From Gammaproteobacteria bacterium (lineage in GTDB: Bacteria; Pseudomonadota; Gammaproteobacteria; JAADHS01), in the NCBI GenBank assembly GCA_013151745.1, contig JAADHS010000012.1:4354-68353 (forward strand): DNA of 64,000 nucleotides. The letters are read 5' to 3'. Positions 1 to 54,751 of this stretch are shown piece by piece. The notes under the pieces were generated by a model. The model saw only the letters and a list, made by a program, of their open reading frames with translations, had not been told where the DNA came from and made no database searches. A program made the position numbers and the translations under genes. How positions within the stretch are numbered: position 1 is the first letter of the stretch; the number at the start of each line of letters is the position of its first letter.

Positions 1-660
1 ATTGGGGAAAAACTGGTCACGGCGAATCAATACGGTGACCTTGCTACCTAGCCGCTGCCAAACACTACCGAGTTCCAGGCCGATGACTCCCCCTCCAATG
101 ATAACCAGCTTTTTGGGTGCTTCCTTAAATTCAAGTGCTCCGGTAGAGTCAACTATAAGCTCATGGTCAACAGGTGCAAATGCAACATCACGTGGCTTGG
201 AGCCGGTGGCGATAATAATATGATGAGCCTTGAGTGTGGTTTCTGGCGTTGTGTTATCCGAGCGGATGACGTCTACTTTTTGATGGTCTATCAATCGTCC
301 TGTACCATGAAAAAATTCAATTTTATGTTTGATAAAGAGCGCTGAAACCCCACCGGTCAAGGTATTAACAATATCATCTTTACGTTTGAGCATGGTTTTG
401 ATGTTGATGCTGGCTTTGCCAATGGTAATGCCATGAGGGGTGAGTCCGGAAGCGAGTTCATGATATTTTTGTGATGAACTCAGTAATGCCTTGGAAGGGA
501 TGCAACCCACATTGAGACAGGTGCCGCCTGGGGACGCTTTTCCTGATTTATTAACCCATTGATCAATGACTGCTGTTTTCAGGCCGAGTTGTGCACAACG
601 AATCGCTGCGACATAGCCCCCCGGCCCTGCACCGATAACAATGACATCAAACTGTTTCAT
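1..660 (-). CDS. lpdA: Dihydrolipoamide dehydrogenase (E3 component), N-terminal 220 aa; the C-terminus lies beyond the 5' window edge
   Basis: The reverse complement of 600-660 reads ATGAAACAGTTTGATGTCATTGTTATCGGTGCAGGGCCGGGGGGCTAT, i.e. MKQFDVIVIGAGPGGY, a Rossmann FAD motif. Downstream residues GTCLNVGCIPSK give the redox-active disulfide CxxxxC. The gene sits immediately downstream of sucB. Confidence 0.9.
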   Translation of the reverse strand, partial: MKQFDVIVIGAGPGGYVAAIRCAQLGLKTAVIDQWVNKSGKASPGGTCLNVGCIPSKALLSSSQKYHELASGLTPHGITIGKASINIKTMLKRKDDIVNTLTGGVSALFIKHKIEFFHGTGRLIDHQKVDVIRSDNTTPETTLKAHHIIIATGSKPRDVAFAPVDHELIVDSTGALEFKEAPKKLVIIGGGVIGLELGSVWQRLGSKVTVLIRRDQFFPN

Positions 661-669
661 TTTACGCTC

Positions 670-1869
670 CTAGATTTGCAATAACAGGCGAGCCGGGTCT
701 TCTAACATCTCTTTTACAGTAATGAGAAAGTGTACCGCCTCCTTACCATCGACAATGCGATGATCATAAGACAGGGCGAGATACATCATGGGTCTGGCGA
801 CAATTTCACCGTTCTCAACAATGGGCCGGATTTGTGTCTTGTGCATGCCAAGAATACCACTTTGTGGAGGATTAAGAATGGGGGTGGATAGTAAAGAACC
901 AAAAACCCCGCCATTACTGATTGTAAAAGTGCCCCCCGTTAAATCATCAATAGAGAGTTTACCTTCTCGAGCTTTTATCGCGTAATCCGTGATTTGCTGT
1001 TCCAGCTCGGCAAAGGACAGGGCATCGGCATTTCTGACGACGGGAACGACTAAGCCTCGAGGAGAACTTACCGCGATGCTGATATCAAAATAGCCATGAT
1101 AAACAATATCATTGGCGTCTATGGATGCATTGACTACGGGGAATTTTTTGAGGCCTTCGACGACCGCTTTAGTGAAAAAGGACATGAACCCCAGTTTTAT
1201 ACCGTATTCTTTTTCAAATTTATCCTTATAACGACCCCGCATATCCATAACGGGCTGCATATTGACTTCATTAAAAGTAGTCAGCATGGCCGCCGTATTT
1301 TGTGCCTCCTTCAATCTTTCAGCAATACGGGTACGCAGGCGTGTCATCGGTACTCGACGTTCTTCTCGAGAGGCACCCAGTTGTGTGGGTGTGCCGGGTT
1401 GTACCGGCGGTTGTGCTGTAGACGGCGTTTTATTGTGGTTTAATACATCCGCTTTGGTGATGCGTCCATCTTTGCCCGTGCCGACAATATGCTCGGGGTT
1501 GATCCCCTGCTCGTTAACTCGTTTACGCACAGCCGGACTTAATTTAGCATGGGTTGATGATGCTGCAGACGCAACAGTTGCAGTGTGTTCGACGGACACG
1601 GTGGGTCTGGTCGCTTGCAGGCTGGCCTTGGCTTCGCTGTCTATGACGGCAAGCACTTCTTCACTGCCTACTGAAGTGCCATTGGCTTTTTTTATTTCAG
1701 TTAAAACGCCATCTTCCGGGGCGACGATTTCCAGCACAACCTTGTCTGTTTCCAGCTCTACAAGGATCTCATCTCTGAGAACAAATTCACCACTTTGTTT
1801 ATGCCAGCTAATCAGCGTTCCCTCCGTAATAGACTCAGACAAAACGGGGACTTTGACTTCGATCAACAT
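670..1869 (-). CDS. sucB: Dihydrolipoyllysine-residue succinyltransferase (E2 of 2-oxoglutarate dehydrogenase)
   Basis: 399 aa. N-terminal lipoyl domain ([24 protein letters not shown]), Ala/Pro-rich linker, C-terminal catalytic domain (..[13 protein letters not shown]..). Adjacent to sucA. Confidence 0.93.
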
Positions 1870-1890
1870 TGTTGTTCTCCCTTTACAATA

Positions 1891-4728
1891 TTATTTTGAA
1901 TTTATCGACAGTGCCTCTTCAATCAAATGGCGTTGTTGCATGATATGCTTTTTCAAGTAACCCACTGCAGGTGCTGCCGCCGCCGTGCGTCCTGCATAGC
2001 GTAGTTGTTGACCGACCTTGAGTTTATCTCTTATATGGTCTTGAATGAAGCCCCATGCCCCCTGATTTTGTGGTTCTTCCTGGCACCAGACAATGTCCTG
2101 GGCATTACAATATTGGGTCATGATGTCTTTTAATTCAATATCTGGAAATGGATATAATTGTTCAATTCTGACGATTGCGGTATTCAAAACGCCTTGTTTT
2201 TTCTGTTCCTGGAGTAAGTCAAAATAGACTTTACCGCTACAAAAAATGACTTTTTCGATTTCTGAAGGCGCGGTAACGTAGGTATCATCAATGATCAGTT
2301 GAAATGGGTGTGAAACCAGGTCGTCCAGTGTCGAGGTTGAATCTCGATGTCTTAATAAACTCTTGGGCGTCATGACGATCAAGGGTTTTCGATAGGGTCG
2401 CAACATCTGTCGGCGAATAAGATGAAACATTTGGCTGGGTAAGCTGGGTACGAGAACTTGAATATTGTCTTCAGCACAGAGTTGCAGGTATCTTTCCAGT
2501 CTTGCTGATGAGTGCTCTGGGCCTTGGCCATCGAAACCATGCGGCAGATACATCACCAGACTGCTCAGACGATTCCATTTAGAGTGGCCAGAGGATATAA
2601 ACTGGTCAATAACCACTTGAGCACCATTGGCAAAGTCGCCAAATTGAGCTTCCCATATAGTGAGGCATTTAGGGTCTGTCGCACTAAAACCATATTCAAA
2701 GCCCAGTACGGCCTCTTCAGAGAGCAGTGAATCAATGACGGTAAAGCTCGGTTTGCTGTCATTAACATAGCGTAGCGGGACATGGGCTGCCCCCGTTTTT
2801 TGATCATGGAGAACCGCATGACGATGAAAAAAAGTGCCTCTGCCGCTGTCCTGACCCGATAAACGTACAGAATAACCTTCTCTAAGCAGAGTGGCATAGG
2901 CCAGCGTTTCAGCAAAGCCCCAGTCCATCCTGGCCTCTCCGCTGGCCATATTCAGTCGCTCTTCCATAATTCGAGCGACCCTGGGGTGTAGAACGAAGCC
3001 CTCAGGAAGTAAGTTCAGTTGTTTTGCCAAAGTCGATACGACTTGTTGTGATGTTTGTGTATTAACAGCGTAGCGCCAGTGGGTTTCCGCATAGGGTGTC
3101 CAGTCGGTCATTACGGCTCGTGCTGTTGCATTGATGTTGGGTGCGGCGGTTTCACCGTGGTCTAGCAGTGCCCGATATTGTTGTTGCATCTGAGTAATGT
3201 CATCTTGTGTAACAACACCTTCTTTAACCAGATGTTGAGCATAGATATCGGGTACGGTTGCATGCTGTTTAATGATTGAATACATCATGGGTTGCGTTGC
3301 GGAGGGTTCATCTGCTTCACTGTGGCCGTGCCTGCGATAACAGAATAGATCGATGACAACATCTCTGCCAAATTCATTGCGAAAGTCAAAAGCAAGCTGT
3401 GCTGCAAAAAGCACGGCTTCCGGGTTGTCGCCATTGACGTGTAGTACCGGAGCTTGAACCATCCGAGCAACTTCAGTGCAATACGGAGTAGAGCGGGCAT
3501 CCAGATGATTGCTTGTGGTAAATCCGATTTGATTATTAATGATAATATGCAAGGCGCCACCAATGGTAAAGCCGCGTGCTTGAGACATGTTGAAGGTTTC
3601 CATGACGACGCCCTGACCCGCAAAAGCAGCATCGCCATGGATTAATATAGGCATGACTTCGGTGCGTTTTTTATCCTCTCTTCGGTGTTGTCGGGCGCGT
3701 ACAGAACCGGCGACGACAGGGCAGATGATTTCAAGATGTGACGGGTTAAAGGAGAGGGCAAGATGGAGGTCTCCGCCGTCTGTTTTAATGTTTGAAGAGA
3801 AACCTTGATGGTATTTGACATCACCTGAGCCTTCATTGGTACTGGGGTCAAAATGTCCTTCGAACTCTTGGAACAGCGTAGCAGGAGATTTACCCAATAT
3901 ATTGATCAATACGTTTAAACGACCGCGGTGTGCCATGCCCATGACCACTTCTTTTGTCCCGTTTTTTCCTGCGGATTGAAGGAGGTGGTCGAGCAGAGGA
4001 ATCAGGCTTTCACCGCCTTCCAGAGAAAAACGCTTTTGCCCAACATATTTGGTATGCAGGTATTTTTCCAGGCCCGACGCGGCAATAACACGAGATAAAA
4101 TATTGCGTTGTTGCGCCGGGTCAGGTCTCAATTTGGCGCGTGACGACTCAAGGCGTTGCTGGATCCAACGCTTTTGAGTGGTGCTGGAAATATGCATATA
4201 TTCAGCGCCAAGGTGGCCGCAATAGGTTTCTCTTAAATGATGTATGATATCTCGCAAAGTGGCTTGTTCGACGCCAGCCAGTGAGCCTGTATTAAATACC
4301 GTATCCATATCATTTTCGCTCAAACCGTGAGAGGCCGGGATCAGGTCAGGCAAAGGTGGCGATTTTTTGAGTGAAAGAGGGTCGGTTTTTGCTTCCTGGT
4401 GGCCGCGAAAGCGATAAGCATTGATGAGTTGTAACACGGCGACTTGTTTACTCTCAATAGATTCGATGACTTGGTTATAGTCTTGATGCGTTAAAGAACG
4501 AGGTCGGTGACCTTGAAAAACAAATTCATTACGGATAAGGGCATGATCAACGTCAGCAATGGGTGGGTCATTGGGTTTTTTGAACGTGTCAAAATAACTA
4601 CGCCAGTTTTCATCTATGTCGTTGGGGTTTGTTAAATAGTTGGCATACAGCTCTTCAATAAATGCAGCATTACCCGCAAATAAATAGCTACTGTCCAAAA
4701 AGTCTTGCATTCCGTTTTTGTTCTTCAC
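1891..4728 (-). CDS. sucA: 2-oxoglutarate dehydrogenase E1 component
   Basis: 945 aa with the typical SucA N-terminus (DSSYLFAGNAAFIEELY), a TPP-binding region and a transketolase-like C-terminal half. Confidence 0.95.
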   Translation of the reverse strand: MKNKNGMQDFLDSSYLFAGNAAFIEELYANYLTNPNDIDENWRSYFDTFKKPNDPPIADVDHALIRNEFVFQGHRPRSLTHQDYNQVIESIESKQVAVLQLINAYRFRGHQEAKTDPLSLKKSPPLPDLIPASHGLSENDMDTVFNTGSLAGVEQATLRDIIHHLRETYCGHLGAEYMHISSTTQKRWIQQRLESSRAKLRPDPAQQRNILSRVIAASGLEKYLHTKYVGQKRFSLEGGESLIPLLDHLLQSAGKNGTKEVVMGMAHRGRLNVLINILGKSPATLFQEFEGHFDPSTNEGSGDVKYHQGFSSNIKTDGGDLHLALSFNPSHLEIICPVVAGSVRARQHRREDKKRTEVMPILIHGDAAFAGQGVVMETFNMSQARGFTIGGALHIIINNQIGFTTSNHLDARSTPYCTEVARMVQAPVLHVNGDNPEAVLFAAQLAFDFRNEFGRDVVIDLFCYRRHGHSEADEPSATQPMMYSIIKQHATVPDIYAQHLVKEGVVTQDDITQMQQQYRALLDHGETAAPNINATARAVMTDWTPYAETHWRYAVNTQTSQQVVSTLAKQLNLLPEGFVLHPRVARIMEERLNMASGEARMDWGFAETLAYATLLREGYSVRLSGQDSGRGTFFHRHAVLHDQKTGAAHVPLRYVNDSKPSFTVIDSLLSEEAVLGFEYGFSATDPKCLTIWEAQFGDFANGAQVVIDQFISSGHSKWNRLSSLVMYLPHGFDGQGPEHSSARLERYLQLCAEDNIQVLVPSLPSQMFHLIRRQMLRPYRKPLIVMTPKSLLRHRDSTSTLDDLVSHPFQLIIDDTYVTAPSEIEKVIFCSGKVYFDLLQEQKKQGVLNTAIVRIEQLYPFPDIELKDIMTQYCNAQDIVWCQEEPQNQGAWGFIQDHIRDKLKVGQQLRYAGRTAAAAPAVGYLKKHIMQQRHLIEEALSINSK

Positions 4729-4743
4729 TGTAACGACCCTGTT

Positions 4744-6519
4744 TTATAAAGAAGACCAAATTGTGTCAAAATCCCCTGATTCTTCCAGGTTATTTTTGTT
4801 TTGTTCTTTGTTGAGAGAGGTTGTTGTATATTGAAATTGTTTAAACCATTTGTTGGATTGTATGAGCCTTGAAAGCTGGATGAGTGTTTCACCGTTGTTT
4901 TGATGTAATAATACCGTATTTCCTGTATGAAAAAATGAAGACGTCATGATGGTTTCAGGCCTATTTATCGCTTTGATCGTGGGCAGTATTAAAGCATAGC
5001 TGAAGTCTTCTGTTTGTTTGCTTTCCTGTTTTAATTTAATTCGTACCGCTTCTGCTGTTGGTGTTAACACTTCTGCGCCCATAATAACAATAGCGTCTTC
5101 TTTTTTCATCCAGCGAATGATGCATAGCGTGTAATTTTGTGGCTGGTCTGGGGATTCAACAACACAGAGCAAGTCATCGACATTTAATGGCGCATGTTCT
5201 TTTTGCTCCCAGAGTAAGCAGTACCCGCCCGCGCTTTCATCTATTTTTTTGAGCAGATAGCGGTGCGCTGGAGTGCATGTTGTGTCTGGTAAATCCGGAC
5301 TCAAGTCGTCGTTTATTGTTGCTGTAGCTTGTACACGTTGGCCAAAATCCCACAGGGTGTTTTTTTGACCATGGAGAGGGTCAGGTGTTTTTTCTTTTGC
5401 GGAAAAAACAGCAGGGCGTTGCCAGTTGTCATTTTCATTTGAAAAATTGGAGATATAACGATGTATAGAGGATAATCCTATAGTGACTTCAACTGAACTT
5501 GATTTTTTGTGTCGGGGGAATTGGCGTTTTGACAATAGCTCCCAGGAGAGCAGCAAGCGTTTTAATGTCGTTTTTGACAGGGCTCGAGTTGCTTCCTCTT
5601 GCTCGCCAACGTGTAAATGACCAGCCTGGTTGGTAGAAAGCAATGATGATTCCCTTATTTTTTTTATCAATAATGAAGTGTCTAATATTAAACATGGTTC
5701 ATTTTCAAGATCAAGCTGACTATGAAAGCGAGGTGGGTCGTCTTTATAGGGGTTGACAGCGAACAGACCGGAGGCTTGCGTGTCTGCATGTGATTCACTG
5801 AGCTTGCAAAAAGGAGCCCAATATTTAAGTGAATGTTGAATGTTCAGAGTGTCTTCCTGCGAGAGTTGATAAGGGTTGGCCAGCGCAAGAAGGAGTGTCT
5901 GTAAATAGATATTGTCTATCGTTTTTGTTTTGTCTTTGCGAAGATGGCGTGTCGTGACTACGCCAGTATTTAAATTATGGGTCCGCGCGAAAGAATACAG
6001 TGTGTGTAACTCCAGCCATAACAGAGGCGGTGCGGAAGTATATACCAGATATTCATTAGTTAAAATTTGGTGCATATGAAGCAAGGTATGATAGATCGAC
6101 GGTAATAGTAGAGACTTGCTGGTAAATAAGCCGCCATGATTGTGAATGAGATCGATGATGATTTTATAGCCCGTCGTTAATTCTGTTAATATTTCTCTGG
6201 CAAGGTGTGCAACTTTAATATTTTTCATGGAAAGTGTTGCCGAGACGTGGGTATATTTTCCTTGTAAGGACGCGATGATCTCTTCTATGGCAGGGGTTAT
6301 TTTTTGCAGAAAATAAAATCGTTCTTGATTTGGTATAAGGGTGCCATTGGTTTCGCGCAAGGCATGGTAAATATGCCGGCTCAGTTCCCCTATGTGCGCC
6401 CGTGGCAGGTCGTTGTACCATTCATCAATATGCTTGGCCTGAGTGTTAAAATGAGTGGTTTTAGCCGGTTTTTTTTGTTCCGGTACATTGAGCATTAATG
6501 GCTTTCCAGTTGTGGCCAC
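4744..6519 (-). CDS. Large hypothetical protein with a C-terminal PilZ-like motif (possible c-di-GMP receptor)
   Basis: 591 aa ORF ending 15 bp upstream of the sucA start. It contains ..AHRYLLKKIDESAGGYCLLWE.. (DxSxGG, the second PilZ signature) followed by beta-strand-like segments. A canonical RxxxR partner is not clear. No other domain recognised by eye. Confidence 0.45.
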   Translation of the reverse strand: MATTGKPLMLNVPEQKKPAKTTHFNTQAKHIDEWYNDLPRAHIGELSRHIYHALRETNGTLIPNQERFYFLQKITPAIEEIIASLQGKYTHVSATLSMKNIKVAHLAREILTELTTGYKIIIDLIHNHGGLFTSKSLLLPSIYHTLLHMHQILTNEYLVYTSAPPLLWLELHTLYSFARTHNLNTGVVTTRHLRKDKTKTIDNIYLQTLLLALANPYQLSQEDTLNIQHSLKYWAPFCKLSESHADTQASGLFAVNPYKDDPPRFHSQLDLENEPCLILDTSLLIKKIRESSLLSTNQAGHLHVGEQEEATRALSKTTLKRLLLSWELLSKRQFPRHKKSSSVEVTIGLSSIHRYISNFSNENDNWQRPAVFSAKEKTPDPLHGQKNTLWDFGQRVQATATINDDLSPDLPDTTCTPAHRYLLKKIDESAGGYCLLWEQKEHAPLNVDDLLCVVESPDQPQNYTLCIIRWMKKEDAIVIMGAEVLTPTAEAVRIKLKQESKQTEDFSYALILPTIKAINRPETIMTSSFFHTGNTVLLHQNNGETLIQLSRLIQSNKWFKQFQYTTTSLNKEQNKNNLEESGDFDTIWSSL

Positions 6520-6671
6520 TATAAACCTCCGCTGTTTTGACTCTCTGGTTTCTGATAAAATGATGTCTTTGATAAAGGATATAATCGACCAATAAGCGAT
6601 TTTGTTTAAGAAAATCTAAAATATTAGCAAACATTCAAGCCCAGTGCCGATCGCACCGATATGTTTCTATG

Positions 6672-6895
6672 CCCATGGCGTTATGAATTTAGGTGTTAGC
6701 ACGTGCAAATAAGCCTTGGATTCGGTTTTTCCGACTGACGACTGCATGGATACAGGAGATAGCACCCAAAGAACTGGGTATAAATGCTCTACATCGCGGA
6801 TCAACTGCGTTTTCTAGGGTAAAAGTAACTTACCGAGAAAAAACCGAGAATGAGTGCCGGTGGACGTGAAAATGCCTCAATTCATAACGCCATGG
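6672..6895. repeat. Intergenic repeat element copy A (224 bp, 18-bp perfect terminal inverted repeats)
   Basis: CCCATGGCGTTATGAATT at 6672-6689 and its reverse complement AATTCATAACGCCATGGG at 6878-6895. Internal modules recur elsewhere: a TCGGTTTTTCCGA hairpin, CAGGAGATAGCACCCAAAGAACTGG, and GCTCTACATCGCGGATCAACTGCGTTTTCTAGG. Confidence 0.8.
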
Positions 6896-6945
6896 GTTGA
6901 TAGTCGTTTTATGAAATTATTGAACAACGTGGGAGTGATAATAGA

Positions 6946-8649
6946 TTGTTAAGTACAGCTTCCACTTTTCGTTTAGAGCAATCATTGTGTATTGGTTTTA
7001 TAGCCAGTCGCCATTCCTCAAGTAAAATAATCAGCGATATGTTGATTAAGTCGGGGCATCATATAGATATTTTTTTGGGTCTCCAGGAGGCTTTGCCTCA
7101 AGTGACCACGGGGAAGTATGACCTTATATTGATTATGGTCGAAAAAGGGGCAGAGGCTAAACAGTGTGAAGAATTAATTCGTTTTGTTCGTCAGCAAAAA
7201 ACTCCTGAAATATATAGCATACCTTTAGTCGTCATTACCGAATTTGATAGTGCGATGACCCTCGAAAATTTGTTTTTGGCGGGGGCAAGTGATGTCATTA
7301 TTTTACCCATTAGCGAAGCAGAATTACACAATAGGCTACATCAGGTTATTTTTTTAGTTCCTGAATCTATTTTTGAAGGTCGTCGAAGCGAGAAAGAACG
7401 GTTAGAAATTGAAAATATAAACGAGCCGGACAAGTTAACTGAAAAAAATACAAAGCCATCAAGGAAGAGGGGCTGGTATATTATTGTTTTCATAGGGCTA
7501 GTTCTTGGGTTGATTGCTATTATCAATATGGGTCATAACACGCAGGCACCAGAGCGAGAAGACCATTTTGTTCAAGAAACGGTGGTTAAAAAGGAAGTTA
7601 AAGAGGTTGTCAGTCAGCCAGAAATCGTCATTAAACCGGCTGTTGAAGAACCAAAAACAGTGCATAAAACGGCTATTTTAATCTCAACGGTACGCCCTGA
7701 ACTCGGTAGTCTGATTCAAAATAGAGACTTTTCTGGGCGGGTTGTGAGTGAAGAGCAATGGGCTGTTCGCTCAAAAACTTCCGGAAAAATAGCCCGTGTT
7801 TTTGTTGATGTTGGTGAGCGCGTCTCTAAAAAACAGGTGATTGCCGTTCTGGAAAGCAAGAAGGCGGTGACCGAGTTAAAAAATGCCCAGATTAGTTTGA
7901 GAAAAGCAAAGGCCTTTTTGCAGCTTGCGACGGATAAATATGAGACAACGCTTGAACGTTATCGCCAAGGACAAGGTAACAAGCCTCGTTTGCGTGAGGC
8001 TGAAGTGTCTCAACATAATGCAAAAACGGAGCAAAAAATGGCCGAAAAAGCCTACAGGGATGCCCGCATAGCATTGGAAAATACAAGAATTACTGCGAAG
8101 TTTGACGGCGTTATATCTTCGGTGTTTTTTGAAAAAAATAAGATGATAAATAAAAACGATATTTTGTTTAACCTGGAAAAATCGTCAAAAAAAGGGGTAG
8201 AACTCTTTTTAGAAGCAAAACAAAAGCCTGATATTGCTGTAAATAATAGTGTGACCGTATTTACTGACAGGGATGAAAGCGCGTCTCCATCCTGGGATGA
8301 AAAAGTCGTGGCGGTTAGGCCGGTAGTGGATGCATCAGGTGTCACCTCAGCATGGCGAGTTCAATTGACACTGACAAACGATCGTTTGCGTTACGGTCAG
8401 CAAGTGCATGTCAATTTACCCATACTTGAAAAAGAAGAGGTTGTTAAAGTTCATACAAGTAATGTGATAAATAAGAAAACCCAACCGTTCATACCCATAA
8501 ACAATAAGGGTGTGGTTAAATATCAACCTGTTAAACTAGGTTTGCAGATGGGGGATTATGTGGAAATAAAGCAGGGGTTAGTGCTGGATGATGAAATTAT
8601 TGTATCTCCAGAGCTGCTTGACGAAGGGGTGTCAGTGAGAACCCATTGA
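6946..8649 (+). CDS. Degenerate receiver (pseudo-REC) domain, one TM helix, then an HlyD/RND-adaptor-like periplasmic domain
   Basis: 567 aa. N-terminal CheY-like fold in which the phospho-acceptor position is Met (..YDLILIMVE..) and the conserved Lys is lost. A hydrophobic helix (WYIIVFIGLVLGLIAIINMG) follows. The C-terminal region has the biotin-lipoyl-like hairpin (GKIARVFVDVGERVSKKQVIAVLE), a coiled coil and the beta-barrel/MP domain typical of membrane fusion proteins. The start is uncertain: TTG at 6946 or ATG near 7038. Confidence 0.6.
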   Translation: MLSTASTFRLEQSLCIGFIASRHSSSKIISDMLIKSGHHIDIFLGLQEALPQVTTGKYDLILIMVEKGAEAKQCEELIRFVRQQKTPEIYSIPLVVITEFDSAMTLENLFLAGASDVIILPISEAELHNRLHQVIFLVPESIFEGRRSEKERLEIENINEPDKLTEKNTKPSRKRGWYIIVFIGLVLGLIAIINMGHNTQAPEREDHFVQETVVKKEVKEVVSQPEIVIKPAVEEPKTVHKTAILISTVRPELGSLIQNRDFSGRVVSEEQWAVRSKTSGKIARVFVDVGERVSKKQVIAVLESKKAVTELKNAQISLRKAKAFLQLATDKYETTLERYRQGQGNKPRLREAEVSQHNAKTEQKMAEKAYRDARIALENTRITAKFDGVISSVFFEKNKMINKNDILFNLEKSSKKGVELFLEAKQKPDIAVNNSVTVFTDRDESASPSWDEKVVAVRPVVDASGVTSAWRVQLTLTNDRLRYGQQVHVNLPILEKEEVVKVHTSNVINKKTQPFIPINNKGVVKYQPVKLGLQMGDYVEIKQGLVLDDEIIVSPELLDEGVSVRTH

Positions 8650-8749
8650 ACCTAAAAAACTCAGTTGATCCACCTAACTATGCGGGAAAAAGTTTCATCA
8701 CCAATAAGGTGACCATGATTTTCCTCGCTACGTTATTTGAATCAATATC

Positions 8750-8800
8750 TTGCATTCTACATTTGCGTCCAACTGCGTTTTCTAGGTTGAACCTAAAGTT
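8750..8800. repeat. Repeat-family fragment E (CGTCCAACTGCGTTTTCTAGG module)
   Basis: Matches the 3' module of copies A, C and F. Confidence 0.6.
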
Positions 8801-10577: not shown

Positions 10578-10602
10578 CATCGTCCAACTGCGTTTTTTAG
10601 GA
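10578..10602. repeat. Repeat-family fragment F between convergent genes
   Basis: CATCGTCCAACTGCGTTTTTTAGG shares the module of copies A, C and E. Confidence 0.6.
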
Positions 10603-11685
10603 TTAAAGACTCAGCATGTTTTTAACAATTTGTTTGGCACCATCAAATGCGTCAGGTTCACAAAATACAGGGTATTTTTGCGTTGTTAATGCAGAAAATT
10701 CTGCTTGAAAATGCCCCTGAAAAAGTTGTTCGCGAGTGATGTTTTGACATAAGCCGTTAATTTTTAACCAAGAAACTAAGAATGACTCTTCTGGCCAATC
10801 GCCACGTTTCACATACAATACCGGTTTTTTATTACAGGCCGCTTCAGTAAAAATGCCATACCCTGGTTTGGTGATCACACAATCCACAGAGCATAGCAAG
10901 TCAAGATAGCTATAGGAGAATTGATCTATAGCGATTAAATCGTCACGTTTACATTCTGTTGTGTCTGGCACCAGCCATACTTGATTAGGGTAACTTGGCC
11001 ATTGATCGAAAGGAATATCGGTTTTGACCCCGCCAAGCGCAACTAGAGTTAACTGAATATTCGTTGCGTTTATCTTTTTTAGTAAATGGTCTTTAACGGA
11101 CTGACCTCGTTGAGCAATGGGGTTAACCTGTATGGCGTTTTCAAGCCAGTTCATTGGCATACAAGGCGTTATTTTGTAAAAACAGTCGGCAGCATTATAA
11201 CTATTTTGTATTTGTTGATAAATGTCGTCTGCAGTGGCGTTGTTTTTACAATAAGAATGAAAAATATCAGCCCAGTTTAGAGAGCACATTGCAATACAGG
11301 GGTAATCGCTATTTTGCGTGGCAAGCAAGGGCAAATAAGCAATATTCGAGATCAGCAAGTCGGGGGATAAGGCGTCAAAAAAAAGGTTACATGCGTGTTT
11401 TTGTTTCTCCCAATGTTGGTGTAAATTTTGATATTGGGCCATGCTTTTTTTAGCTAGAACATCAATGCTTGATGCCATCACCATGCCAAAGTCCCATGAT
11501 CGCTCTATATGCCGACAACCGGGTAGTCGTCGTTTGATGATGGTGGGTGAAATTCCGGAAACAACGGTAATTTCAGCATGGGGAATCAAGCACAGCAGTT
11601 CTTTGATCACCGGTATCGTTTGGGCTAAGTGACCCAGGCCGTGCGCAGAAACAGTAAATACGAAATGGGGTTTGTTCGAGTTCAT
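10603..11685 (-). CDS. Glycosyltransferase-like protein (GT-B/UDP-glycosyltransferase-like, MJ1255-type)
   Basis: 360 aa with an N-terminal SAHGLGH motif and two Rossmann-like halves. No family search was possible. Confidence 0.45.
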   Translation of the reverse strand: MNSNKPHFVFTVSAHGLGHLAQTIPVIKELLCLIPHAEITVVSGISPTIIKRRLPGCRHIERSWDFGMVMASSIDVLAKKSMAQYQNLHQHWEKQKHACNLFFDALSPDLLISNIAYLPLLATQNSDYPCIAMCSLNWADIFHSYCKNNATADDIYQQIQNSYNAADCFYKITPCMPMNWLENAIQVNPIAQRGQSVKDHLLKKINATNIQLTLVALGGVKTDIPFDQWPSYPNQVWLVPDTTECKRDDLIAIDQFSYSYLDLLCSVDCVITKPGYGIFTEAACNKKPVLYVKRGDWPEESFLVSWLKINGLCQNITREQLFQGHFQAEFSALTTQKYPVFCEPDAFDGAKQIVKNMLSL

Positions 11686-19765: not shown

Positions 19766-19841
<76 letters not shown>

Positions 19842-20035
19842 ATTCTCAAATATGCCTGTGGCGTTTGAGATTTAGGTATTATGTCAATCCTGTTTATTTC
19901 ATGGTAAGGCGAAATGACGAGGTGTAGTAGCCCGCTATGACTAGGGGTTTCAACGCAGCCATAGCATGAAGAGGGCTGTAATTAAATCTAAATCTCAGGT
20001 GCCATGGGCATAGGCTAGTAAATGAGTGGATATCG

Positions 20036-20109
20036 GGCTGGGTGGCAGAGTGGCTATGCAGCGGCCTGCAAAGCCGTGGACGCCGGTTCGATTCCGGCCC
20101 CAGCCTCCA
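20036..20109 (+). tRNA. tRNA-Cys (anticodon GCA)
   Basis: 74 nt: acceptor GGCTGGG/CCCAGCC, anticodon loop CCTGCAAAG, GGTTCGATTCC T-loop, CCA. Confidence 0.9.
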
Positions 20110-30169: not shown

Positions 30170-30306
30170 TCTATATCCGTGGCGTTATAAATGTAGGTGC
30201 TAGCGCGTGTAGACGCGCTTTAGATCGGTTTTTCCGATTAAGGAAAAGCTGAAGATGAGGTACAGATGTGTGTGAAAAGATCTAAGTTTATAACGCCACG
30301 GGTATA
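30170..30306. repeat. Intergenic repeat element copy B (about 137 bp, terminal inverted repeats)
   Basis: ATATCCGTGGCGTTATAAA at 30173-30191 and TTTATAACGCCACGGGTATAT at 30287-30306. It shares the GGCGTTAT.AAT.TAGGTG.TAGC.CGTG and TCGGTTTTTCCGA modules with copy A. Confidence 0.75.
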
Positions 30307-31084: not shown

Positions 31085-31472
31085 TGAGTTTTTGATTCGT
31101 GTGAATATGAATATATTTTCTATTGTTCCTTTTGTCATCTAGATGATACTCCTGTATTGATGCCTAAGTTATTCCGTGCACGTTTCCAAGATACTTGTTA
31201 TTCTTGAATTTGTAATATGGAAATAAGGTATAAGAGATATAGTGGCTCAGCAGACAATGCCGAAAAGGTTAAACCTAGAAAATGTAGCTGGATGCGAATG
31301 TACCTCGAGGGCATTTTTTCTAGGGCGCACCCTGAGGGCACTTCTTTCAGGGCGAATAGTGAAAATATTGATTCGAATAACGTAGCGGGGAAAATCGTGA
31401 TACAGCCCAAGGAAGGGCAAATATCGCAAAGCACAGGGATTGCGAAAGCGTACACCTTATTGGTGGTGAGAC

Positions 31473-31571
31473 TTTTTTCCGCATAGTTAGGCGGATCAAG
31501 AGCTTGTATCCAAGAAATCGGGTATCAATGCTCTACATCGTGGATCAACAGCGTTTTTTAGGTTAAATAGG
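31473..31571. repeat. Intergenic repeat element copy C
   Basis: TTTTTTCCGCATAGTTAGGCGGATCAAGAGCTTGTAT is shared with copy D. GGGTATCAATGCTCTACATCGTGGATCAACAGCGTTTTTTAGGTTAAATAGG is shared with copy A. Confidence 0.7.
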
Positions 31572-32421: not shown

Positions 32422-32653
32422 AAAAATTAATTTACATTTATAACTTTCCACTTACTCATTGTAGCTGCCTTGTCTACAGGGATGTTGGCAAGGGGCGCGA
32501 GCATGATGCAGGAGCTAGCACCCAAAGAACCGGACATAAAAGGCGACTCAGGAGACAAAGCCGAGGACGGAAGATTTGTTCGTCAGTTACACGGCCACTG
32601 TTCGCCATTCCTACAATGGCGATTGAAAACCCATAAATGTAAACTAAATTTTT
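32422..32653. repeat. Intergenic repeat element copy G (about 230 bp, roughly 20-bp imperfect terminal inverted repeats)
   Basis: AAAAATTAATTTACATTTAT at 32422-32441 against the reverse complement of ATAAATGTAAACTAAATTTTT at 32633-32653. It has a nested IR CATTGTAGC/CTACAATGG and the internal module CAGGAGCTAGCACCCAAAGAACCGG, shared with copy A at 23 of 25 positions. Confidence 0.65.
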
Positions 32654-35550: not shown

Positions 35551-35673
35551 TTCGGCATCGTATAACCTGAATTCATAAATTTCCCGGTATTACAAAATTA
35601 CTTGATTCTTTGTAACGATACCTGTGGCGTTTGAAATTTAGCGAGTCGTTACAATTAGTTTATTTACAGCTCC

Positions 35674-35862
35674 TAGGGGCCGTTCTCAATTAACTGGGAG
35701 AGTGCATTTTCTAGGAGTTTTCTGTTCTGACAAGGCAGTTTTTGTGCGCAATGCCAGACATTGTTTTTGTGCGCAATGCCAGACATTGCAAGGAAAAACT
35801 AACGCGGTCAGGGCTGAAAACCACTGAAAAGGAACTTTCCATGTTAATTGAGAACGCCCCCT
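35674..35862. repeat. 189-bp element with 21-bp terminal inverted repeats and an internal 25-bp tandem duplication, in the selD promoter region
   Basis: TAGGGGCCGTTCTCAATTAAC at 35674-35694 against the reverse complement of GTTAATTGAGAACGCCCCCTA at 35842-35862, with 1 mismatch and TA at both outer ends. TTTTTGTGCGCAATGCCAGACATTG is repeated in tandem at 35739-35763 and 35764-35788. Confidence 0.75.
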
Positions 35863-35891
35863 AAGTGTGGCTGAGATAAAAAAATAAGAGT

Positions 35892-46160: not shown

Positions 46161-47348
46161 ATGACTATAAAATCATTTCATCCTCCTCAACGTACCTTGA
46201 TGGGACCTGGGCCGTCTGATGTTAATCCCCGTGTTTTGGAGGCGATGTCACGCCCCACAATCGGCCATCTGGATCCCGTTTTTGTGGGTATGATGGACGA
46301 AGTGAAGACACTGCTTAAATACGCCTTTCAAACAAAAAATGAGTTAACCATGCCGGTTTCTGCTCCAGGTTCTGCCGGAATGGAAACGTGCTTCGCTAAT
46401 TTGGTAGAGCTGGGTGACAAGGTTATTGTCTGCCAAAACGGCGTATTCGGTGGTCGTATGAAAGAAAATGTCGAGCGCTGTGGTGGCATCGCTGTCATGG
46501 TGGAAGATGCCTGGGGTGAAGCGGTTAACCCACAAAAGCTGGAAGAGGCGTTGCAAGCCAACAGCGATGCGAAAATTGTCGCCTTCGTTCATGCTGAAAC
46601 GTCTACCGGCGCTCAGTCTGACGTGAAAATTCTGGTCGAAATGGCTCATAAGCACGACTGTCTGACTATCGTGGATGCGGTGACCTCGCTGGGTGGTACT
46701 CCGGTACGAGTCGATGAATGGCAGATTGATGCTATTTACTCCGGTACGCAAAAATGTCTCTCCTGTACGCCAGGGCTTTCTCCTGTGAGCTTCAGCGAGC
46801 GAGCGCTGGATAAAGTTCGAAATCGCAGTAGCAAAGTACAAAGCTGGTTCCTCGATCTAAATTTAGTGATGGGATATTGGGGGGGGGAAGGCAAGCGTGC
46901 GTATCACCACACCGCACCGATCAACGCCCTCTACGGTTTGCATGAATCGCTGGTGATTTTGCAAGAAGAGGGGCTGGACAATGCCTGGGCTCGCCACGCT
47001 AAACACCATCAAGCATTACGTGCGGGTTTGGAAGCGATGGGGTTGAGTTTTATTGTGGATGAAGCGTCGCGCCTACCTCAGCTCAATGCCGTCTCTATTC
47101 CTGAAGGCATTGATGATGCTACCGTACGAGCTACGTTGCTGAGGGATTATTCACTGGAGATCGGTGCTGGGCTGGGTGTCATGGCCGGTAAAGTGTGGCG
47201 TATCGGTCTGATGGGATATGCCTGTAATGCCCGCAATGTTCTCACCTGTTTGGGTGCGTTGGACGACGTACTGAGTCGTCACAATGCAGCGATTGAGCGT
47301 GGTGTGGCTGTCGCTTCTGCTCAAACGGTGTTGGCAGCCAAAGCATAG
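46161..47348 (+). CDS. Class V aminotransferase (serine--glyoxylate / alanine--glyoxylate aminotransferase type)
   Basis: 395 aa with AGXT-like N-terminal motifs (LMGPGPSDV, ..SGTQKCLS..). The PLP lysine is in the SGTQK context. Confidence 0.8.
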   Translation: MTIKSFHPPQRTLMGPGPSDVNPRVLEAMSRPTIGHLDPVFVGMMDEVKTLLKYAFQTKNELTMPVSAPGSAGMETCFANLVELGDKVIVCQNGVFGGRMKENVERCGGIAVMVEDAWGEAVNPQKLEEALQANSDAKIVAFVHAETSTGAQSDVKILVEMAHKHDCLTIVDAVTSLGGTPVRVDEWQIDAIYSGTQKCLSCTPGLSPVSFSERALDKVRNRSSKVQSWFLDLNLVMGYWGGEGKRAYHHTAPINALYGLHESLVILQEEGLDNAWARHAKHHQALRAGLEAMGLSFIVDEASRLPQLNAVSIPEGIDDATVRATLLRDYSLEIGAGLGVMAGKVWRIGLMGYACNARNVLTCLGALDDVLSRHNAAIERGVAVASAQTVLAAKA

Positions 47349-47358
47349 CGTAAGGAAT

Positions 47359-47388
47359 GGAACCCGCAGTGGATCCACTGCGGGTTCC
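47359..47388. terminator. Bidirectional rho-independent terminator between convergent genes
   Basis: Perfect 13-bp stem GGAACCCGCAGTG / CACTGCGGGTTCC with a GATC loop, then GTTTATT on the plus strand. It lies 11 bp after the aminotransferase stop and 5 bp from the minus-strand gene stop. Confidence 0.6.
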
Positions 47389-47392
47389 AGGT

Positions 47393-47704
47393 TTATTCAG
47401 GTGTTTCGATATAGTTTTCGTCATCCGTTTCATTTTCGCCAGACCAGCCCGCCGTCTTGGCTTTATCGAATGCCGCACCGTGGATTCGAGTGTGACGTTC
47501 TCTTAATTCTTTAGGTAAGCGACTCACTAAACAAGCATATTTGCCCCATTCAGCATTGACTTCTTGAAGTAATGCGTCAAGACGGCCTAGATTCCAACCG
47601 GTACAATCTTTTGTTTCAGGGAGAAGATCAAATACCCATGCATCTCTAATGATTTTTCCAATCGAGGTCATTCCTCCCCAGTCTTCGTTGTTTAAATCCG
47701 ACAT
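47393..47704 (-). CDS. Small acidic hypothetical protein
   Basis: 103 aa ORF convergent with the glc operon. No domain recognised. Confidence 0.45.
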   Translation of the reverse strand: MSDLNNEDWGGMTSIGKIIRDAWVFDLLPETKDCTGWNLGRLDALLQEVNAEWGKYACLVSRLPKELRERHTRIHGAAFDKAKTAGWSGENETDDENYIETPE

Positions 47705-51695: not shown

Positions 51696-51790
51696 AGATG
51701 CCACGGAGCTAGCCCCGTGGCGATTGAGATTTGAAGCCTGATTGCATTTACAGTTGCGTTGAACATCTTCGAAATAATCGACAACTACGA

Positions 51791-54280: not shown

Positions 54281-54334
54281 TCTATAAATTCCTTACGGTT
54301 TCAGTTTTTCTCAGAATACCAAACTGATTAACCT

Positions 54335-54520
54335 AAAAACGTAGTTGATTCACGATGTAGAGTATTTACGTCTGGTTTTATTTTTATAAGTAGTTGATTT
54401 TTATATCTATGTGGGAAAATTGTGATCACCTTGTTGGTGCTTGAAATTTTCCCGCATAGTTAGGCGGATCAAAAGCTTGTATTATACATTGTGGATCAAC
54501 TGTATTTTTTAGATTTAATC
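54335..54520. repeat. Intergenic repeat element copy D (about 185 bp, imperfect terminal inverted repeats)
   Basis: AAAAACGTAGTTGATTCACGATGTAGAG at 54335-54362 against the reverse complement of TACATTGTGGATCAACTGTATTTTTT at 54485-54510. The internal module TTTTCCCGCATAGTTAGGCGGATCAAAAGCTTGTAT is shared with copy C. Confidence 0.7.
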
Positions 54521-54751
54521 CTATCTGTCTGATTTTACAGTTATTGTAAGCGAACAGGTTAAGTTATTTCATAAATTGTCCGACTATATAGCCATAGCGT
54601 TATGATTAGGTGCGACTCTATATTCTGTACATCTACGACATCATGTGCTACTTTTTCTTTATGAGCTAATGTTTATTTGTCTTAACTCTGAACAAGACTT
54701 AAGCTAAAAAATGAGGGGTTGCAGGTTTGAATTTCCCTCAAAGGAGCCAAA

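Follow-up and report, generated by a model that had tools for sequence, protein, structure and literature searches.

The stretch analysed here, called the window below, is a 64,000-nucleotide piece of a gammaproteobacterial contig (JAADHS010000012.1, assembly GCA_013151745.1, positions 4,354 to 68,353). Its intergenic DNA contains a cluster of small elements that we interpret, with a probability of about 0.8, as non-autonomous DNA transposons (MITEs, for miniature inverted-repeat transposable elements) of at least two families, the commonest of which, type 2, would derive from an IS1380-type transposase lineage. A first-pass annotation had described a single mosaic family of MITE-like or REP-like (repetitive extragenic palindromic) elements built from five shared modules, (i) to (v). 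All five modules were found at their sites by direct reading, and comparison of the window with itself showed that the sharing is beyond chance. A single mosaic family was not borne out: the window has at least two families, which differ in their ends and in their target duplications (5-bp WTNAW in one, putatively TATA/TA in the other), together with two singleton inverted-repeat elements.

In the self-comparison, element A (6753-6823) matched element C (31497-31567) with 80% identity over 71 nt (E=1.7e-14), and another part of A (6673-6741) matched element B (30177-30244) with 77% identity over 69 nt (E=9e-10). Shorter matches of 36 nt joined A 6749-6784 to element G 32505-32540 (86% identity) and C 31474-31509 to element D 54447-54482 (94%). 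In the repeat search of the window, matches of element E ran inverted along the full length of C. Modules (iv) and (v) are those of type 2, module (v) being its terminal inverted repeat CCTARAAAACGCAGTTG (also written CCTARAAAACGCAGTTGATCC...). Type 1 has modules (i) and (ii), and its ends are CCCATGGCG... (also written CCCATGGCGTTATRAAT..TAGGTG). The type-2 features are listed below; the profile used to recover window copies was built from copies in other organisms only.

8651-8786, minus strand (the better-folding strand): type-2 MITE E, complete, 136 bp; foreign-copy profile E=3.6e-18; target duplication TTGAA at 8646-8650 and 8787-8791.
31274-31562, plus strand: type-2 MITE C, complete, 289 bp; foreign-copy profile E=8.9e-12; target duplication TTAAA at 31269-31273 and 31563-31567.
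54332-54513, plus strand: type-2 MITE D, complete, 182 bp; foreign-copy profile E=9.2e-9 (54333-54513).
6753-6818, plus strand: right half of a type-2 MITE inside the loop of element A; 80% identical over 71 nt to C 31497-31567.
10581-10601, plus strand: solo type-2 terminal repeat F; end-only profile at 10583-10601, E=1.7e-4; flank ATTAA at 10602-10606.

The window census of type 2 is therefore three complete copies (E, C and D) and two solo ends (6801-6818 and 10583-10601). Two of the complete copies had been recognised in part: the fragment formerly placed at 8750-8800 is real but constitutes the right end of the 136-bp element, which also takes in inverted matches at 8642-8751, and the copy formerly placed at 31473-31571 is the right third of the 289-bp element. 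D was real as well, and its boundary was corrected from 54335-54520. The flanks of D, ATTAA and TTTAA, match at 4/5 positions, and its ends are degenerate (right end TAGA, not TAGG). The half-element in A carries its terminal repeat at 6801-6818 (end-profile E=2e-4) followed by the flank GTAAA, and its start overlaps module (iii). C and E match in four collinear blocks, between which C has extra segments at about 31303-31361, with an imperfect direct repeat inside, and at about 31400-31452. The mosaic look of the copies is explained by the nesting in the loop of A, by the internal duplication and extra segments of C, and by the truncated solo ends. Larger type-2 variants (210-370 bp; loci L023, L030, L047, L049 and L088), found in gammaproteobacterial and Thiothrix metagenome-assembled genomes (MAGs), carry inserted sub-modules, for example ATGCAGGAGCAATT... 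and CCTACATGGACGTAGG, which are reminiscent of module (iii) in the window (GCAGGAGCTAGCACCC). Growth by modules thus seems characteristic of the type-2 family as a whole and not special to the window.

The proposal that the elements are MITE-like non-autonomous transposons is supported by their size, their ends and their number. Complete copies range from 127 to 289 bp in the window and from 48 to 502 bp elsewhere; they contain no transposase gene, and the open reading frames (ORFs) inside them are short and inconsistent. Type 2 has CCTARAAAACGCAGTTG at both ends, and in A the type-1 repeat CCCATGGCG... is perfect across 18 bp. Within 64 kb there are five type-2 and three type-1 copies or ends, each at its own intergenic site. 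On the ORF map each copy lies between ORFs or tRNA genes, which confirms the intergenic position first reported. Since the elements occupy nine separate intergenic sites with unrelated flanks, the possibility that they are parts of a single larger duplicated segment was rejected.

Confinement of the modules to the window, which had been named as the observation that would argue against a dispersed family, is clearly contradicted for module (v). A 21-nt degenerate end pattern, for which about nine chance matches were estimated, was scanned against one genome per species and gave at least 110 loci. These include at least 27 in one Legionella MAG, at least 16 in a gammaproteobacterial MAG, at least 14 in a Thiothrix MAG, at least 6 in a Chromatiaceae MAG and at least 10 in Verrucomicrobiota/Opitutaceae; Thiotrichaceae, Methylococcales, Moraxellaceae, Coxiellaceae and others account for further loci among the matches listed. 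Genomes of cultured isolates, Legionella yabuuchiae and Methylocucumis oryzae, are also among those matched. Isolated matches (Paenibacillus, Clostridia, Brocadiaceae) may be due to chance, and those in other phyla stem from MAGs without a contamination check. At least 120 more loci came from a metagenome scan for the type-2 end, and the scan of viral contigs gave no match. When plasmids were searched with a window copy or with a concatenate of six foreign copies, no element-level match was obtained; there was one end-only match, in a Legionella adelaidensis replicon, with no transposase nearby.

Pairing of left and right ends among the genome loci listed gave 57 complete elements of 48-502 bp; end pairs 2.7 kb (L077) and 6.4 kb (L057) apart were not accepted as single elements. 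In genome and metagenome loci together, copy sizes have modes at about 163 and 175 bp. The bases that adjoin the terminal ...TAGG on the outside read TTNAA or ATNAT in almost every case, and an exact 5-bp direct duplication was observed at 30 of the 57 complete copies, nearly always ATTAT, TTTAA, TTAAA, TTGAA or TTCAA. Exact 5-bp duplications also flank E and C in the window. As near-identical 175-bp copies in one Legionella MAG are flanked by both ATTAT and TTTAA, the five flanking bases are a target duplication and not the end of the element. Judged from these flanks, the 5-bp duplication at WTNAW is the signature of a transposase that would make a 5-bp staggered cut at a palindromic site. 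No description of the type-2 terminal sequence, or of a link between MITEs and IS1380, was found in the literature, and publications on MITEs of sulfur bacteria, Legionella, Coxiella and Geobacter gave no description of the family. Type 2 is thus apparently widespread and undescribed.

Full-length elements sharing the type-2 end connect the family with IS1380. Among the genome loci listed (at least 110), there was no full-length element, no end pair being more than 502 bp apart; no transposase-like ORF lay beside unpaired ends, no transposase cluster recurred and a tblastn search with ISEcp1 was negative. In the metagenome scan, an end pair 1620 bp apart was observed (L194, 1475-3094) with the same right end as type 2 and the duplication TTTAC/TTTAC. 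The decayed ORFs of L194 match two models in collinear order, PF13701 and NF033539, the latter being that of the IS1380 family transposase (matched at its positions 57-164 and 226-417). The repaired L194 protein led to abundant intact homologues of 513-520 amino acids with PF13701 (8000 of 8000 scored candidates at E<=1e-20), many of them on contigs of 1.7-2 kb, as expected of multicopy insertion sequences. The DNA behind seven of these partner proteins consists of elements of 1679-1695 bp. Their left inverted repeat (IRL), CCTARATTMMTCAGTTRA (also CCTARATTMMTCAGTT), precedes the start codon by about 62 bp, and their right inverted repeat (IRR), CCTAAAAAMCGCAGTTRR...CCTGCC (also CCTAAAAAMCGCAGTT), follows the stop codon at about 74 bp; this IRR is the MITE end. 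The IRR CCTAAAAAMCGCAGTT and a PF13701/NF033539 transposase are found together in L194, L233 and L235-L241 (1620-1695 bp), and 6 of 8 complete partner copies are flanked by exact 5-bp duplications (ATAAA, TTGAA, TTTAC twice, ATCAA and ATAAT). In a Geobacter MAG (L001), a decayed transposase N-terminus lies directly inside the terminal repeat. With ends that match the inverted repeats of one IS1380 clade, type 2 is in all probability an IS1380-family MITE.

Two of the full-length copies, L238 and L241, have no direct duplication: the flanks of L238 (cggTTCAA and TTGAAccg) are mutual reverse complements, and L241 has TTCAA at one end but ATAAT at the opposite end, the latter pair suggesting recombination between copies. 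Full-length copies often lie in or next to other mobile elements (L194 3049-3513; L233 3216-4124; L234 7-1320; L235 1-1556), their neighbours being an IS110-type gene that is truncated, an ISL3 transposase, a further DDE transposase and fragments of a Tn3 transposase accompanied by a MazE/PemK pair.

The family assignment also agrees with what is known of IS1380 elements, the ends of which begin with CC and which duplicate 4-5 bp (ISfinder description). Type 2 has the CC start and the 5-bp duplication. Known members of the family include ISEcp1, a classic one, IS1247 and their relatives. ISEcp1 makes 5-bp duplications as well, and type-2 ends begin with CCTAGA/CCTAAA as its ends do (IRL CCTAGATTCTACGT and IRR CCTAAATTCCACGT, read from plasmid pC15-1a). 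The full-length partners likewise make 5-bp duplications and encode PF13701/NF033539 transposases. The differences are that the window elements have no transposase, that both MITE ends resemble the partner IRR, in place of one IRL and one IRR, and that the partner clade (513-520 amino acids) is distant, the ISEcp1 transposase being about 25% identical to its representative P0141 (E=7e-13). A protein search seeded with ISEcp1 did not lead to the partner, its best 120 matches all being 83-100% identical to ISEcp1. Many of these 120 matches are of environmental metagenomic origin (JGI, ENA, Logan), and two are named from Labilibaculum and ANME-2 MAGs; ISEcp1-like elements appear to be widespread beyond clinical enterobacteria. 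We know of no description of a palindromic WTNAW target preference, such as that of the partner clade, for IS1380.

On this basis, a DDE transposase of the IS1380 clade, encoded elsewhere, would bind both type-2 ends and excise or copy the element. Insertion would then take place at a palindromic WTNAW with a 5-bp staggered cut, leaving the 5-bp duplication.

Several observations weigh against this interpretation. Past the first 17-20 nt, the MITE sequence is unrelated to the subterminal DNA of the full-length elements, so that those recovered are cousins and not the direct parent. No partner-clade transposase was found in the 64-kb window or in 48 kb of a related MAG, and mobilisation in this genome is for that reason unproven. 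The window copies are old and diverged, with degenerate ends and a duplication in D that matches at 4/5 positions. As regards type 1, its TATA flank is constant and palindromic and could belong to the element instead of being a duplication. Finally, type-2 copies conserve a strong strand-specific hairpin, an extra constraint that DDE cut-and-paste transposition does not require.

This hairpin was characterised on an alignment of 31 distinct 163-nt type-2 copies from other genomes and metagenomes (86% mean column identity), which contains a conserved difference between the two arms. RNAalifold, proposed in the first-pass annotation as a check on structure, gave one long hairpin of 63 pairs with an apex TCACC-loop-GGTGA, and 33 of the 63 pairs were changed on both sides. 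Standard pairs occupy 97.2% of cells, compared with 35-47% when the partners are slid by 1-3 columns. Shuffles gave 15.7 +/- 2.0 double-change pairs and none of 500 reached the observed 33. The pairing is also strand-specific: G·U cells number 303 on the preferred strand and 18 on its complement, and when each pair was counted once, 26 pairs had G·U in two or more sequences and 4 had A·C (p=6e-5). The mean RNA minimum free energy (MFE) is -89.3 kcal/mol on the preferred strand vs -58.4 on the other, the preferred strand being the more stable in 31 of 31 copies. The asymmetry is weaker in the Legionella 175-nt subfamily. The following RNA MFE values were obtained for window copies of both types:

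C (folded as 31271-31566): -99.6 kcal/mol on the preferred strand, -76.5 on the other.
D (folded as 54333-54514): -67.0 kcal/mol on the preferred strand, -40.7 on the other.
E: -46.8 kcal/mol on the preferred (minus) strand, -35.2 on the other (plus) strand.
B (type 1): -58.2 kcal/mol on the preferred strand, -43.7 on the other.
T (type 1): -61.1 kcal/mol on the preferred strand, -45.4 on the other.

Hence it is possible, and fully compatible with a MITE origin, that type 2 is not only mobile but also a structured RNA or a functional single-stranded DNA (ssDNA) hairpin selected on one strand; we hold this as a tentative addition. The suggestion of a structured RNA family, or of both natures at once, gained support from the strand-specific covariation, from the G·U bias, and from the strand asymmetry, which is common to the 31 copies and to C, D, E, B and T, but it found none in Rfam: only three tRNAs reached the gathering score in the window, and permissive scans of E and one foreign copy gave chance-level matches only. 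The preferred strand showed no bias relative to neighbouring genes (same/opposite 12/12 on the 5' side and 12/18 on the 3' side) or to local GC skew (7/24 positive, p=0.06). This indicates that the strand preference is a property of the element itself, which host-gene co-transcription does not explain. No convincing internal promoter was found, the promoter and terminator scans giving consensus-level hints only. With DNA energy parameters the same asymmetry was obtained (-43.5 vs -27.3 kcal/mol), so that the RNA and ssDNA forms are indistinguishable on this criterion. Furthermore, template switching at quasi-palindromes can yield double changes without selection, though not the G·U bias, and as the 31 copies are related, the covariation counts are not independent events. 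On the alignment and folding models, the pattern fits selection on a single-stranded RNA or DNA form, which might be processed to a small RNA, be targeted by an RNase or supply a fold that the element needs for its own propagation. We read the hairpin as a real extra constraint of unexplained nature; it is the unexpected part of this analysis and the feature most worth following. A bolder proposal, which we consider rather doubtful, is that type 2 is a mobile structured-RNA gene, or a transposon needing a strand-specific single-stranded hairpin, spread across several bacterial phyla by one IS1380 clade and keeping its stem of about 75 bp through compensatory changes and one-strand G·U pairs. 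If the hairpin does reflect an RNA or ssDNA intermediate, it would bear on the regulation or movement of IS1380/piggyBac-type elements and of their MITEs.

Many type-2 copies abut the ends of genes. In the window, the left duplication of E (TTGAA, 8646-8650) includes the TGA stop of an RND-adaptor gene (ORF 6946-8649), and the flank of F (ATTAA, 10602-10606) includes the TAA stop of ORF 10603-11685 on the minus strand. The loci retrieved contain 343 type-2 ends in all; at 19 of these, duplication positions 2-4 coincide exactly with the stop of a converging ORF (at least 100 amino acids), other offsets having 0-7 each. These junctions, together with the position of B, 30 bp after a FimV-family gene, could point to host-domesticated terminators or mRNA-stabilising gene-end hairpins kept for that function, and on either strand of E the apex hairpin TCACC-loop-GGTGA, with the T-rich run behind it, was flagged as terminator-like. 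We nevertheless judge such a domestication to be quite unlikely: the pattern scans gave consensus matches only, the apex stem is short and G+C-poor, and orientation to neighbouring genes is random. The stop-codon association is more simply explained by the target, the T-N-A core of which spells a stop codon (TAA/TGA) if N is A or G. As the duplication restores the stop codon, insertions at gene ends would be harmless and tolerated; a WTNAW target thus explains why such insertions persist.

A REP/BIME-type (bacterial interspersed mosaic element) origin, with movement by a REP-associated tyrosine transposase (RAYT, IS200/IS605-like HUH), is highly improbable, for although the elements are intergenic and palindromic and the motif CTACATCG / CGATGTAG in window copies recalls the GTAG of REPs, this motif is not conserved across the wider type-2 family, the REP-like label does not fit elements that measure 130-290 bp and have both terminal inverted repeats and 5-bp duplications, REPs being palindromes of 20-40 nt with a conserved GTAG-type head, an associated RAYT gene and neither such repeats nor such duplications, the ends match IS1380 insertion sequences with a DDE transposase, and no RAYT gene was seen in an analysis that included no RAYT search.

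The remaining elements are of type 1 or are separate. Some of the copies in the following list had not been noticed at first pass (19854-20009, 35674-35863 and the end fragment 51711-51734); the same applies to type-1-like end fragments at 35618-35641 and about 54594-54615.

6672-6896, plus strand: type-1 MITE-like element A; 18-bp perfect terminal repeats CCCATGGCGTTATGAATT, modules (i) and (ii).
30176-30302, plus strand: type-1 MITE-like element B, 127 bp; TATA flanks at 30172-30175 and 30303-30306.
19854-20009, plus strand: type-1-related element T, 156 bp; terminal repeats GCCTGTGGCGTTTGAGATTTAGGT and an inverted partner ending GCCATGGGC.
32422-32653, no strand assigned: separate inverted-repeat element G; ends AAAAATTAATTTACATTTAT, TA flanks.
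35674-35863, no strand assigned: separate inverted-repeat element of 190 bp; arms of 38 nt with 84% complementarity, TA flanks.
51711-51734, plus strand: fragment resembling the type-1 terminal repeat (AGCCCCGTGGCGATTGAGATTTGA); a weak match, 75% to the reference copy, with a small palindrome before the fragment.

Type 1 was seen in the host lineage only, in six copies: A, B and T in the window and three in the related MAG. Of the 6 copies, 4 are flanked as TATA|...|TATA. The perfect terminal repeats of A lie at 6672-6689 and 6879-6896, and its loop holds module (iii) and the type-2 half-element. B starts 30 bp past the stop codon of the FimV/HubP-family gene. T occupies most of the 194-bp spacer between tRNA-Gly (19766-19841) and tRNA-Cys (20036-20109); transcription of the tRNA cluster would include T on the strand that folds better (MFE -61 vs -45 kcal/mol). 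G has only module (iii) in common with A, and no second copy of it was seen. The 35674-35863 element contains a perfect 25-bp tandem duplication (35738-35787) and has a very stable fold on both strands (z of about -9 to -11); the type-1-like end fragment 35618-35641 lies just upstream of it. The TA or TATA flanks of type 1, G and the 35674-35863 element are compatible with an IS630/Tc1-mariner-type duplication, no partner search having been made for these; for type 1, a TA-duplicating partner of the IS630/Tc1 type is our guess from the flanks alone.

The age of the copies was considered with the help of a related genome. Positions 1-6857 of the window are 94.9% identical to CAYQVF010000005.1, a MAG named 'uncultured Chromatiaceae bacterium' (L009), and the source of the window is for this reason close to that organism. 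The window genes include tRNA-Gly, tRNA-Cys, tRNA-Leu and the FimV/HubP-family gene; for two window proteins, searches for an identical recorded protein gave none. An origin in Enterobacterales with ERIC-like repeats, which the glyW-cysT-leuZ-type tRNA cluster might have suggested, was rejected on account of the FimV/HubP gene and the 94.9% Chromatiaceae identity. A is present at the same locus in L009 over at least its first 186 bp, where the L009 locus ends; its left 85 bp are 87% identical between the two, more diverged than the 94.9% surroundings. The window type-2 copies are about 70-91% alike over their alignable parts; the copies within the Legionella MAG and within the CAXMRQ gammaproteobacterial MAG are far more alike. 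Active proliferation, as first suggested, is therefore not supported for this genome, given this divergence and the presence of A in a 95%-identical relative. By sequence comparison, A predates the split from that relative, and the elements look like old residents. The biology of the window is in this respect ordinary, that of old, decaying MITE copies in intergenic DNA.

Other known systems resemble type 2 in form. Correia/NEMIS elements of Neisseria, ERIC/IRU elements of enterobacteria and QMITE1/2 of Coxiella are also small, non-coding, intergenic and multicopy, with terminal inverted repeats and a long hairpin, but they have no sequence relationship to type 2. Correia elements duplicate TA, whereas the type-2 duplication is of 5 bp, at WTNAW. 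The direct repeats of QMITE1 are of 2-3 nt and those of QMITE2 of 7-11 nt (PMC5896051), and some hairpin-forming bacterial MITEs give small RNAs (PMC5896051, PMC10969869). The MITE-rich genomes of Ca. Thiomargarita nelsonii belong to a related group of sulfur-oxidising gammaproteobacterial hosts. The hupL MITE of this organism has 10-bp direct repeats and 19-bp inverted repeats, and the Thiomargarita dsrA-intron MITE has TATA-type ends, as type 1 has here (PMC4853749). The comparison with the window families is by description only, and as described the MITEs of Coxiella and Thiomargarita have different repeats.

A further comparison concerns the piggyBac transposons of eukaryotes; piggyBac duplicates a palindromic TTAA and has ends beginning with CCCTAGAAAG. 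Type 2 and its partners are reminiscent of this, with a TTNAA/ATNAT target and ends that begin CCTAGAAAA (CCTAGAAA). The duplication is of 5 bp here and of 4 bp in piggyBac, and the ends resemble each other over a short length only, perhaps by coincidence. As a lead, the partner clade may be a bacterial counterpart of the TTAA/CCCTAGAAAG system of piggyBac, with its TTNAA/ATNAT target and CCTAGAAA ends; if so, the link between the two superfamilies would be experimentally tractable. IS1380 transposases already serve as the prokaryotic outgroup of piggyBac (PMC10813416).

Bacterial MITEs are under-catalogued, and in many cases the transposase behind them is not known. The present analysis ties one such family to a defined and very abundant IS1380 clade; the family itself, which spans several gammaproteobacterial orders and Verrucomicrobiota, and its assignment appear to be new, the MITE kind being ordinary. 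The link between IS1380 and MITEs should help annotation, as such elements disrupt assemblies and give rise to spurious ORFs.

A perfect 32-nt palindrome (TGGAACCCGCAGTGGATCCACTGCGGGTTCCA) was also observed at 47358-47389, between the convergent ORFs 46161-47348 and 47393-47704. By eye, about 16 of 20 positions in each half agree with the terminal repeat of type 2, and the repeat search lists 77%. The palindrome could serve as a bidirectional terminator, represent a domesticated mini-element of the end-to-end kind, or resemble the repeat by chance.

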